Assembly: GCA_951406725.2 (NCBI GenBank)
Contig: OX597836.1
Coordinates: 43,090,001 to 43,154,000, forward strand
Direction of reading: 5' to 3'
Length of the DNA: 64,000 bases
From: Octopus vulgaris
Lineage: Eukaryota
Shown: positions 38,510-45,263 of the stretch, piece after piece
Position numbering within the stretch: the first letter of the stretch is position 1
Layout of the letters: the number at the start of each line of letters is the position of its first letter
Position numbers and translations under genes: made by a program
The notes under the pieces: model-generated
The model's database searches: none
Seen by the model: the letters and a program-made list of their open reading frames with translations, nothing else
Told to the model about the DNA's origin: nothing

Positions 38510-38570
38510 ATGTCACAAACAATATATTTCCTACTTCTGTGTGGAATTTTCTGCTCGGCTTTGGCTTCAT
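38510..38570 (+). CDS. Exon 1 (signal peptide) of a secreted Cys-rich/mucin-like protein
   Basis: ATG at 38510 reads MSQTIYFLLLCGIFCSALAS: a hydrophobic core with an A-L-A cleavage motif. Ends in a phase-1 donor T|GTAAGT. TATA-like TATTTAAA at ~38402. Not in the ORF track. Confidence 0.85.
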
Positions 38571-39894
38571 GTAAGTTAGATGTATTTCTTATAGCTATTA
38601 TATGTTTGGTTTGGAAGAGTTGATGGAAGGATTGGCATATCCCAATGTAAATGTAAATGTAAATTCTGTGTTCGAATCCTAACGATGTCAGCTTTGCCGT
38701 TTTCATCTTTCAGAGGTCGATAAAAATAGGTAAGGGTAAAGTACACACACAGTCCGGCACAGTCGACTGTTCATCCGCCACACAAGTATATATATATATA
38801 TATATATATATATATATATATATATATATATATATATATATATATATATATATATATATATATATATGTATATATATATTATGTATATATATGTATATAT
38901 ATATGTATATATATATATGTATGTATGTATATATATATATATATACATATTTATATATATATATACATATTTATATATATATATACATATTTATATATAT
39001 ATATACATATTTATATATATATACATATTTATATATATATATATATATATCTATATATATACATATATATATATATATATATATATATATATGTATAATA
39101 TCGTGTACATTAAAACACATTAAGGGTCTTCCATCATAGGAAACCATTGCGCTAGAAAGAGCAGTAAACAACTCAAACCACTAATTAGGGATAAATTCTC
39201 GAAGGGAAAGAAAATTAAGATCATTTACCATCTAATATTACTTATATATATATATATATATATATATATATATATATATATATATATATATATATATGTA
39301 TATATATATATATTTATGTATATATGTATGTATATATATATATATATATATATGTATATATATATATATATATATATATATATATATATATATATATATA
39401 TATATGTGTGTGTGTGTGTGTGTGTGTGTGTGCATATATATATATATGTGTGTATGTGTGTGTATATATATATATATATATATATATATATATATATATA
39501 TATATATATATATATATATATATATATATATATATATATATATATATATATATATATATATATATAATATAAATCTAACTGGGCCCCACCTGCAAGGTCA
39601 AGCACTGTTTATCTTGATGTAAGATCACCATGTCGTGCACATATGGTTGTGATGCAAGTGCCTGGTGTACCTTTATCAGACGGGTAGCCATGATGGGTAT
39701 ACACGGCTTCGTATATTTTACCCAGTGTCACAGGATGATGGCATGCACTGCTCTCTCACTATAATGATAATGATAATAATAATAATAGTAATAATAATAA
39801 TAATAATAATAATAATAATAATAATAATAATAATAGTAATAATAATAATAATAATAATAATAATAATACCTTAGGAAAGAAAATTTCCCCAAAG

Positions 39895-39936
39895 CACCAG
39901 ATGAAGGCTGTAGGGTATATCAGCCGAAACGTTGTT
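39895..39936 (+). ncRNA. Degenerate minimal hammerhead motif (intron 1, sense)
   Basis: CAC-CAGAUGA (U4A change)-A-GGCUG...CAGCC-GAAA-CGU-U-GU, matching the Penelope-type minimal hammerhead layout. Confidence 0.55.
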
Positions 39937-40368
39937 AACAACAAACAATTTCTAAAGTTTCTAGAAATTTCTGTCCACCTTTTTTCGAGTAGCGTGCGTA
40001 TTGTGAAAAAATTATATGGTTAATGGACAATATGTCCAATTTTTCGGCATATTTGGCATTAGAAATTTTTCTTGTTTGCCCTTATTTATGAATTGTTTAT
40101 AATTTTAACCTTTAAAGGTATTTTTTAACATGCTGGCCATTGATAAAATTTTGGGGGAAAAGAATTTTTTTCGAAAAAGTTTTATCGTACATTAGATATA
40201 TATATATATATATATATATATATATATATATATATTGTGAAATAGAAAGATGAATAATCTTGTTGCAGATTAATCAAAAGTTTGGCCATGGGCTCTTAGG
40301 AGCCTCGTTCGATTTGTTTTGCTCCGCCTCTGTTCTGTTTTTGTTTTTTCCAACGGATTTCCTATTTC

Positions 40369-40448
40369 TTCCTGAAGAGAAAGACACAATATGGTCTCCT
40401 TATTCAATCGGAATTTGGTAAATTGTGCCTTTCGAAACACGTGTAGAA
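40369..40448 (+). ncRNA. Type-I hammerhead ribozyme motif, intact core (intron 1, sense)
   Basis: Stem I UUC/GAA; CUGAAGA at 40372-78; stem II GAAAGACACAAU/AUUGUGCCUUUC (11/12 bp); GAAA at 40434-37; palindromic stem III ACACGUGU; cleavage triplet GUA (after 40445). Confidence 0.85.
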
Positions 40449-40907
40449 TGCAATAAAACGATTTCTGTTCAATCTTCGTTCAACTCCATTTCTTCAATTC
40501 ACTAATATATATATATATATATATATATATATATATATATATATATATATATATATATATATACATATATATATATATATTGCATATATACATGCATATA
40601 TATATATATATATATAGGCTCGAAACGTAAAAGACTTTTTCTATTCCTGAGCGTTATACTAATACATCTGTTTGTTTTGTACACCACCTGTCTTCGACTT
40701 TTGTCTTTTTCGTAAACTCTCCATATATATATATATATATATATATATATATATATGCTATGAGAATGACCGTTTAAACAAAGGGAAAATGTTCAATTTT
40801 ACCCCCTAGCGGTCATTCAAATAGCACTTTTGTCTTAATAACGGACAATCACACAGTAATTACCCTTTGTTTTACGGTCATCTTCATAGCATTTTTTCCG
40901 TTGGCCG

Positions 40908-40968
40908 GATAACTGAAGAGATGGCGGCGTGGATTTCCACCCCGACATCTGAAACTCGGAGTTTTATC
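40908..40968 (+). ncRNA. Type-I hammerhead ribozyme motif, near-intact (intron 1, sense)
   Basis: Stem I GAUAA/UUAUC; CUGAAGA at 40913-19; extended stem II GAUG..CGG.GUGGA/UCCAC.CCG..CAUC; one extra U, then GAAA; stem III ACUC-G-GAGU; GUU triplet. Confidence 0.75.
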
Positions 40969-41199
40969 ATGGCTACCAAATAATTGTCACATATTACATT
41001 TACAGATAAATTCCTCTATTTACATAATATTGAGGTCTCTTTCATTCTTTTGTTGTCTTACCATTTTTAACAATATATATATATATATATATATATATAT
41101 ATATATATATATATATACTAAGTAATAAAGGGTTTGGCAACGAATGCTTACCACATACCACATATATATATTTGACAATCATTTATGTGATATTTTCAG

Positions 41200-41337
41200 G
41201 TCCAGCAAAATGCTCCTTACCAACTTACGATTGTGCACAACCATTTCCAGATTGTCTGTCAAAAGGGGCCACTGTTGTGTGTGTCGAAAATGATCAATTT
41301 AAATGTGTTTTAGAAGTTCCACGTACTGGCCCAATTT
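41200..41337 (+). CDS. Exon 2: six-Cys module 1
   Basis: TTTTCAG| acceptor and T|GTAAGT donor, phase 1-1. Translates (C)PAKCSLPTYDCAQPFPDCLSKGATVVCVENDQFKCVLEVPRTGPI; the first Cys codon is split across intron 1. Confidence 0.88.
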
Positions 41338-43432: not shown

Positions 43433-43997
43433 TTATCTATCTATCTATCTATCTATCTATCTATCTATCTATCTATCTATCTATCTATCTATCTGTCTGT
43501 CTGTCTATTTATCTATCTATCTGTCTATCTATATATCTGTCTATCTATCTACTATCTACCTATCTATGTATCTATCTATCTATCTATCTATCTATCTATT
43601 TATCTATCTATCTATCTATCTATCTTTCTGTCTGTCTGTCTGTCTGTCTATTTATCTATCTATCTGTCTATCTATCTATCTGTCTATCTATCTACTATCT
43701 ACCTATCTATGTATCTATCTATCTATCTATCTATCTATCTATCTATCTATCTATCTATCTATCTATCTATCTATCTGTCTGTCTATCTGTCTGTCTATTT
43801 ATCTATCTATCTATCTATCTGTCTATCTATCGATCTATCTATCTGTCTATATATCTATCTATCTATCTATCTATCTATCTATCTATCTATCTATCTATCT
43901 ATCTATCTATCTATCTTTTTATCTATCTATCTATCTATCTATCTATCTATCTACCTGTCTATCTGTCTGTCAATCTCCTCATAAACTTTTTTTTCAG

Positions 43998-44348
43998 GTC
44001 CTCAGTGTTTTGAGCCCGGTTATAAATGTTCGGGAATATATTTAGTCGACAACTGCACGGATGCATTATACGTATGTCCAGACAGAACCATGTCCATTTA
44101 TTACTGCGTTGAAAAGTACACCACTACAATCCCAGCTCCTACGACAACTCTTCCCACCACTACTACCACAACACCGGAACCAACCACCACTCCTAAACCG
44201 ACCACCACACCGGAACCGACCACCACACCGCAACCGACAACCACTCCGGAACCGACCACCACACCGAAACCGACAACCACTCCGGAACCGACCACCACTC
44301 CGGAACCGACAACCACTCCGGAACCGACCACCACGACAGAAATGCCAG
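43998..44348 (+). CDS. Exon 3: six-Cys module 2 plus Thr/Pro-rich mucin stalk
   Basis: TTTTTTTTCAG| acceptor and G|GTAAGT donor, phase 1-1. Translates (C)[40 protein letters not shown], then [18 protein letters not shown], 9 x P(E/K/Q)PTTT, TEMP. Confidence 0.9.
44174..44335 (+). repeat. Coding 18-bp minisatellite (9 units) encoding P(E/K/Q)PTTT
   Basis: Repeated CCG(G/A/C)AACCGAC(C/A)ACCAC(T/A) units within exon 3. Confidence 0.95.
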
Positions 44349-44389
44349 GTAAGTTATTCTAGTGAATAGTAATGAGAGGTGAGAAGAAG

Positions 44390-44975
44390 GCGGCGAGCTG
44401 GCATAAACGTTAGCACATCGGGCGAAATGCTTAGCGGTATTTCGCCTGCCGCTAGGTTCTGAGTTCAAATTACGCCGAGGTCGACTTTGTCTTTCATCCT
44501 TTCGATGTCGATTAAATAAGTACCAGTTACGCACTAGGGTCGATATAATCGACTTAATCCGTTTGTATGTCCTTGTTTGTCCCCTCTGTGTTTAGCTCCT
44601 TGTGGGTAGTAAAGAAATAGGTATTTCGTCTGCCGCTACGTTCTGAGTTCAAATTCCGCCGAGGTCGACTTTGCCTTTCATCCTTTCGGGTTCGATTAAA
44701 CAAGTACCAGTTACGCACTGGGGTCAATATAATCGATTTAATCCGTTTGTCTGCCCTTGTTTGTCCCCTCTGTGTTTAGCCCCTTGTGGGTAGTAAAGAA
44801 ATAGGTATTTCGTCTGCCGCTACGTTCTGAGTTCAGATTCCGCCGAGGTCGACTTTGCCTTTTATCCTTTTGGGGTCGATAAATTAAGTACCAGTTACGC
44901 ACTGGGGTCGATATAATCGACTATCTCCCTTGCCCCCAAAAATTTTAGTCCTTGTTCCTATAATAGAAAGGATAA
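44390..44975 (+). mobile_element. SINE family C, tandem multimer filling intron 3
   Basis: Head GGCGGCGAGCTGGCA..GAGTTCAAATT followed by repeated ~185-bp units. Other arrays at 2625-2850(-), 10680-11335(-), 11418-11645, 20787-21190, 35020-35980. Confidence 0.85.
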
Positions 44976-45009
44976 TAATTATTGTTGTTCCTCTCGGTTT
45001 TTTTTATAG

Positions 45010-45167
45010 GTAATCAATGTACAAAAATTCCTGGACTTAACCTACCTGTTCCTAACTTTTGTCTACCGAAAATGACGTCTAAGGGTGGCTGCCCATATGG
45101 TGTCTTCGTGGAGGACACGATTCATGAGTGTGAAAATAAGAACTTAGCATGCTGTGTCTTAAAACCG
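45010..45167 (+). CDS. Exon 4: six-Cys beta-defensin-like module
   Basis: TTTTTATAG| acceptor, phase 1. Translates (G)NQCTKIPGLNLPVPNFCLPKMTSKGGCPYGVFVEDTIHECENKNLACCVLKP, with pattern C-x13-C-x9-C-x12-C-x6-CC. Phase-0 donor CCG|GTAATT. Confidence 0.85.
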
Positions 45168-45236
45168 GTAATTGTATTGCTACGAAGTTTATTGAATTTT
45201 TGTTCTTGTTGTTGTTGTTGTTGTTATTATTTACAG

Positions 45237-45263
45237 TCCAGCTCGAATCCAGTATTTTTATGA
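45237..45263 (+). CDS. Possible terminal coding exon (SSSNPVFL*)
   Basis: TTTACAG| acceptor 69 nt after the exon-4 donor, in phase 0. The true last exon could lie further downstream. Confidence 0.4.
   Translation, partial: SSSNPVFL

Follow-up and report, generated by a model that had tools for sequence, protein, structure and literature searches.

The 64,000-nt window analysed here (contig OX597836.1, C23, of Octopus vulgaris, positions 43090001-43154000; exon coordinates count from window letter 1) contains, in repeat-rich animal DNA, a gene that is spliced into RNA and encodes a protein of 236 residues with a leader, two six-Cys modules, a Thr/Pro stalk and a six-Cys head ending in CC. Judged by sequence, the gene is a member of a small coleoid family common to octopus and cuttlefish. 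As the best explanation we favour, tentatively and at somewhat less than an even chance, a secreted, exon-shuffled binding protein of a mucus or cuticle layer with two working ends and conjectural ligands: the tandem modules would fix the protein to matrix or partners, the stalk, for which O-glycosylation and an extended shape are predicted, would serve as spacer, and the head, with its predicted defensin-type fold, would bind either the surface of a microbe or a foreign enzyme without being released, both ends working tethered in mucus or cuticle.

A sequence-only reading of this stretch had proposed four GT-AG exons with phases 1-1-1 and 236 codons. Re-examination of the sequence upheld this model: the four coding exons have GT-AG borders and join in frame, and a T/GT codon split by an intron indeed encodes Cys 1 of module 1 as well as Cys 1 of module 2. 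The phase-1 acceptor of exon 4 is located three codons upstream of the first Cys of the head. A loose filter (phase-1 exon, five spaced Cys) returned exons 2 and 3 as the sole matches in 264 kb on both strands; an Rfam search gave no match. RNA support was taken from assembled contigs of five sequencing runs (X1, X2, X9, X10 and X11) from five different studies, which carry no record of being RNA and are presumed to be, a spliced joint being what RNA gives. The joint 44348/45010 between exons 3 and 4, named before as a place to look for junction reads, was seen, the runs being compared in two overlapping sets of four, in contigs of X1, X11 and X9 (first set) and, in the second set, with a loose end in X10, hence in four of the five runs overall; X2 had no contig over exon 4, which proves nothing. 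In contigs of all four runs of the first set the genome match started exactly at 43998 and was preceded by 225-286 further letters on the 5' side. Since these correspond to 199 coding nucleotides plus a leader of 26-87 nt, the joints 38570/41200 and 41337/43998 fit as modelled and are supported indirectly, by the length of the contig overhang only. If exons 1 and 2 are as modelled, the overhangs imply a transcript start at 38423-38484. Only two RNA-versus-genome differences were listed for exons 3 and 4, both within the head and both replacing a residue (45100, G214D, in X10 and X11; 45117, T220P, in X9), which is too few for evidence of selection. That chance exons or a dead gene were mistaken for a gene has a practically negligible probability and is in the main refuted: none of the searched protein collections contains the product and exon 5 is missing from the assembly, but spliced contigs were present in four of five runs, each of a different study, the frame is open with 18 Cys and homologues share the plan.

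The 3' end had to be revised. The gene had been taken to end at 45263, but the contigs leave the genome at 45167, and in three of the four runs of the second set they extend with one common sequence that starts with TGA. Since this stop codon opens exon 5, the protein has 236 aa, and the end at 45263 is read-through into intron 4. Searches for the start of exon 5 in the window, over 200 kb of either flank, over 200 kb of contig C22 and with genome-wide patterns were negative; the exon likely sits in the assembly gap at 48426, the sole gap within the 264 kb examined. Two candidates for exon 5, at 45237 and 46142, are used by no contig and were discarded. Past the gap, local duplicated segments were observed (49153-50019 and 51280-52147, 97%; 50989-51540 and 52635-53175, 91%), and the region 48426-53760 may be misassembled. 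Intron 4 also harbours, at 45428-45824, a ~400-bp element with terminal inverted repeats, near-identical copies of which were found in contigs of all four runs of the second set, one of them with another flank; it probably represents a young family resembling miniature inverted-repeat transposable elements.

The leader of 20 aa is the sole hydrophobic stretch of the protein, with a mean hydropathy of 2.39 over 15 residues as compared to a highest value of 0.9 after residue 25. Because there is no other such stretch, the protein has no membrane anchor, and it is likely secreted, the signal peptide being called by hydropathy only. The leader is followed by 18 Cys, six in each of three domains, whose spacings are as stated before: 3-6-6-8-7 in module 1, 2-6-8-6-9 in module 2 and 13-9-12-6-0 in the head. 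Together they would form nine disulfides. The mucin-type stalk was borne out by composition: its 77 aa (residues 108-184) comprise 40 Thr and 22 Pro (62/77 Thr or Pro) and include nine P-[EKQ]-PTTT units, a Pro/Thr/Ser-rich region as in mucins that is predicted to be O-glycosylated and extended. The mature chain has one N-glycosylation sequon and a net charge of -7, the head a charge of +1, and no basic processing site (KK, KR, RK, RR or RxxR) occurs anywhere in the 236 aa.

A phmmer search with exon 2 over 1.84 billion representatives gave three matches, the window's own product not among them. Two (P0001 and P0002) were dropped as repeat-driven and differently built; the third was Sepia pharaonis CAE1274490.1 (P0003) with an expectation value (E) of 1.6e-4, whose transcript-derived cluster mate P0004 consists of a leader, four modules with a Cys spacing of 2-6-6-8-7, a Thr/Pro stalk and a CC head. 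A genome search with the cuttlefish protein led to two paralogs on contig C22, genes B and C, which are convergent on opposite strands and ~23 kb apart; eleven weak genome matches were dropped as non-exons on inspection. Exon 1 of both paralogs is a leader exon of the same kind as in the window gene, and gene B also has the order leader, modules, stalk and head. The spliced model of gene C is identical, letter for letter, to the annotated Octopus vulgaris protein P0009, which validates the method of exon modelling. Gene C is annotated as an uncharacterised protein in three octopus species; an annotated 113-aa isoform (P0008) loses the final CC. The protein search did not retrieve gene B, which may lack annotation. 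Octopus relatives are LOC115223160, LOC106872590 and CAI9739107.1. No paper was found under five of the relatives' ids, and in literature searches the family was nowhere described; a description may exist in subscription papers or in unread supplements. No further family exons were present in 844 kb surrounding the three genes, and genome-wide family counts are lower bounds. The earlier suggestion of a lineage-specific secreted protein stands with regard to the signal-peptide-like start but not with regard to a lone gene, since the family spans octopus and cuttlefish, the split of which is usually dated near 270 million years.

The relationship of the modules was assessed by profiles and 300 shuffles with cysteines held fixed. 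With a profile of the four cuttlefish modules only, five of five octopus modules beat every shuffle: module 1 scored 29.2 bits (shuffle maximum 16.3) and module 2 16.4 bits (shuffle maximum 16.2, a thin margin), each with 0/300 shuffles as high. With a wider profile, the score of module 2 was reached by 1/300 shuffles. These scores support at the sequence level what had been suspected, namely that modules 1 and 2 are homologous and arose by duplication. Module profile and head profile did not align to each other. Within the family there are one, two or four modules, and the stalk is present or absent. Since module number and stalk vary, the protein appears to be built of independent domains by phase-1 exon duplication, and since the part order is kept while module number and stalk length vary, the stalk may be a spacer between such domains. 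We infer an origin by duplication and shuffling of symmetric phase-1 exons; in secreted proteins, introns at the borders of domains are often in phase 1.

Table 1 Features of the window gene and positions of its two paralogs. Positions without a contig name are those of the window.
Feature	Position	Strand	Remark
TATA-like box	38402..38410	+	~100 nt 5' of ATG; resemblance only
Exon 1, coding part	38510..38570	+	20-aa leader and first base of split Cys codon; phase-1 donor
Exon 2	41200..41337	+	six-Cys module 1; symmetric phase 1-1
Exon 3	43998..44348	+	six-Cys module 2 and Thr/Pro stalk; phase 1-1
Exon 4	45010..45167	+	six-Cys head ending CC; phase-0 donor at 45168
Start of intron 4	45168..45263	+	outside main spliced form; covered only by records of depth 2.7-4
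Assembly gap, 100 N	48426..48525		candidate site of exon 5 (stop codon and 3' untranslated region)
Gene C	C22:42852261-42863205	+	103 aa: leader, one module, head; no stalk
Gene B	C22:42905287-42885891	-	192 aa; exons, phases and split Cys codons as in window gene

The earlier reading had not recognised the module, and sequence searches likewise assign it to no family named by Pfam, PDB or Atlas. Sole entries in Pfam (E up to 10) were a low-complexity PARP row on the stalk and rows below cut-off; PDB, searched by sequence with module and head, gave nothing below E 0.15, and Atlas had no entry for the head or for CAE1274490.1. The predicted model of gene C (predicted local distance difference test, pLDDT, 63) has an aromatic-rich hairpin between the last two module cysteines, and Foldseek with this model gave no useful match. 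By eye only, the last four cysteines of the module resemble those at the start of an EGF or follistatin-N domain. Tandem variable modules in one, two or four copies could also belong to a multi-headed enzyme inhibitor, in which the modules would present variable reactive loops to proteases and the head would inhibit another hydrolase. A SPINK1 row appears for the module profile, in the loop from Cys 2 to Cys 4, and the head model matches the amylase inhibitor helianthamide with a Z score of 2.5, but the E of 4.3 for SPINK1 is chance level, Pfam gave no Kazal, pacifastin or antistasin domain at E up to 10, and the Cys spacing of the module is unlike that of Kazal domains. An inhibitor is regarded by us as unlikely.

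The head had been likened to beta- and big defensins. Comparison of its AlphaFold single-sequence model with 48,161 chains gave ten rows reaching Z 2 (range 2.0-2.8), nine of which represent small defensin-type peptides with disulfides, judged by title or known identity. The best rows were HBD4 (Z 2.8, root-mean-square deviation (rmsd) 1.9, 34 aligned) and cryptdin-4 (Z 2.8, rmsd 1.7, 32 aligned); helianthamide (4x0n) had an rmsd of 2.7 with 39 aligned, and the other rows were Ueq 12-1 (Z 2.5), HD6, SCRiP1, Hact-4, a macaque alpha-defensin and AvBD2. It is the agreement among the rows that counts, the scores being low and a small three-strand model being liable to attract such rows anyway. With Foldseek the head gave one row only (E 2.4), and a Pfam scan of the four heads at E up to 10 gave no defensin family, a search in which short divergent domains can be missed. 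The predicted model weakly suggests a defensin-type fold, which together with the CC array is the part of the comparison that held. The window protein is not a big defensin, because a hydrophobic N-domain and a basic cleavage site are absent and the head has a charge of +1. A Defensin_big profile found nothing over this genome, a search that can miss split genes; octopus big defensins are reported in the available part of Gerdol et al. 2020 (PMC7203481).

The same data bear on a further possibility, a precursor of a classical antimicrobial or venom peptide whose head is released and acts alone. The fold rows, which include alpha- and beta-defensins and anemone peptides, speak for it, as do the six Cys ending in CC on an own exon after a phase-1 intron, an arrangement described for big and beta-defensin genes in the accessible text of PMC7203481, where big defensins also span anionic to cationic charges; the exon 4 RNA differences, two of two of which alter a residue, are too few to show selection. 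Conversely, the protein lacks dibasic and RxxR sites throughout, the head charge is only +1, Pfam gave no defensin family for any head, and the family motifs are absent from one salivary-gland proteome supplement (PMC7693380). The four heads are near neutral (+1, +2, -2 and 0) and the stalk is not followed by a basic cleavage site, which does not point to the release of a cationic peptide; we judge such a precursor to be quite unlikely. The antimicrobial or toxin role previously assigned to the head was not sustained: behind it stood the predicted fold alone, the rows of which include an amylase inhibitor, next to a head of +1, a chain of -7 and no cleavage site.

The neighbourhood of the gene was inspected as well. 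The window has transposon remnants at 8449-9043 (-) and 18940-19587 (-), a Tc3-type transposase piece and a zf-RVT piece, and at 42646-43035 (+) and 53872-54261 (+), which by eye look like ends of long interspersed nuclear elements and have no Pfam match. An open frame at C23:43004342-43003953 (-), 124 kb before the window gene, contains a Cys-rich repeat exon of an upstream gene, presumably ephrin-receptor-like as judged by eye, and a tandem array with a period of ~1.75 kb was seen via a repeated motif at C23 ~43306500-43322600. A single-exon gene 32 kb past exon 4 (C23:43167628-43168395, +) encodes a secreted-looking, Tyr/Asn/Pro-rich protein of 249 aa with four Cys near the C-terminus, which has no Pfam match and which an exact look-up did not find in the protein collection. 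Five single-exon secreted His/Gly-rich genes are located 65-158 kb downstream of exon 4 (C23:43200334-43293636); their products have 205-272 aa, 42-57% Gly+Ala+His, GHGG-[LVF] repeats and 4-13 GHG triplets each, four of five end with GHY, and an exact look-up retrieved only one of the five from the protein collection, where it is listed as hypothetical. Compared by composition and motifs only, they resemble in composition the squid histidine-rich beak proteins as given in the available part of PMC11931252, but lack the exact GHG-[PVL]-[YH] pentapeptide; the available text of PMC9068888 states that this beak protein family was not found in Octopus bimaculoides. If the window gene were expressed with these neighbours, its product could be a structural component of the matrix in the beak or in some other chitinous cuticle, with which the aromatic-rich predicted hairpin at the module ends is consistent. 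However, this idea rests on gene neighbourhood, the C22 paralogs have no such neighbours in 380 kb, and no chitin-binding Pfam match was obtained; we consider it improbable.

Several results weigh against the tethered two-ended binding protein that we favour. The head model is of low confidence (pLDDT 66, predicted template modelling score 0.45) and all its structural Z values are below 3. A head profile from B, C and cuttlefish did not recognise the window head, 94/300 shuffles scoring as high; the relatives' heads have Cys spacings of 15-4-12-5-0, 8-3-11-4-0 and 15-3-14-4-0, a B plus C profile matched the cuttlefish head weakly (10/300 shuffles as high), and the heads may differ in function or origin. 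Structure comparison with the gene C model returned signal-helix rows throughout, which are uninformative on the module. Six family motifs were absent from the salivary-gland supplement of PMC7693380, the accessible part of which lists unnamed short Cys-rich salivary proteins, and four motifs and two gene ids from the available skin-mucus proteome supplement of PMC10138644; both negatives are weak, long cells being cut there. In the accessible text of the bioRxiv venom preprint 10.64898/2026.04.09.716377 the words defensin and mucin are not used.

A bolder version, which we regard as doubtful, is that coleoids hold an undescribed defensin-derived class in which shuffling brought a beta-defensin exon to lie after a new six-Cys exon that can be duplicated and a mucin stalk that may be missing, the product being tethered and displayed from a mucus or cuticle scaffold rather than released, and the module being a new small disulfide fold. 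Should this tethered-defensin reading hold, the family would present, in extant animals, the exon-shuffling route that has been put forward for precursors of defensins; a genuine defensin exon in the head would make the family relevant to gain and loss of N-terminal parts by these precursors. In any case, the analysis defines a small octopus-cuttlefish protein family around a six-Cys module that no searched library names. Module number and stalk clearly distinguish its members, and gene C, with 103 aa comprising module and head, is suited to structure and binding work. Among molluscs, secreted orphan proteins rich in Cys are common. The window gene also shows that octopus protein sets still lack expressed genes with small exons.

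Peritrophin-type chitin-binding mucins are secreted proteins with small six-Cys domains and Thr/Pro spacers, and in this layout the window protein resembles them; unlike them, it has no CBM14 or other chitin-binding Pfam match (E up to 10), another Cys spacing and a CC head. It is neither a gel-forming nor a membrane mucin, its chain of 236 aa lacking VWD, C8, CTCK and SEA domains as well as a membrane anchor. With helianthamide (4x0n), Ueq 12-1 (5lah; PMC5450702) and Hact-SCRiP1 (7lx4) the modelled head would share a small disulfide-rich beta fold (Z 2.1-2.5), but these are, in the sources as available, non-antimicrobial free peptides, whereas the window head is on a stalk and has no sequence match to them. 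Big and beta-defensins (Gerdol et al. 2020, PMC7203481, accessible part) are similar in the signal peptide and the C-terminal six-Cys CC domain on its own exon, in the phase-1 intron just 5' of the Cys domain (window gene, genes B and C; a weak criterion), in an N-terminal part joined via a linker of variable length and, weakly, in predicted fold. Exon shuffling of a Cys-domain exon onto other leaders is one beta-defensin route cited there. The same text describes a conserved hydrophobic N-domain as required in big defensins and basic linker sites as frequent; the window family has one to four six-Cys modules instead of this N-domain, the linker of the window protein is the 77-aa Thr/Pro stalk without basic cleavage site, Pfam gave no defensin match, and the spacing between Cys 2 and 3 of the window head is 9. 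The uncharacterised relatives from Sepia pharaonis and Octopus share module and part order with the window protein and differ in having four or one modules, a short or absent stalk and heads that can be aligned to the window head at the cysteines only.

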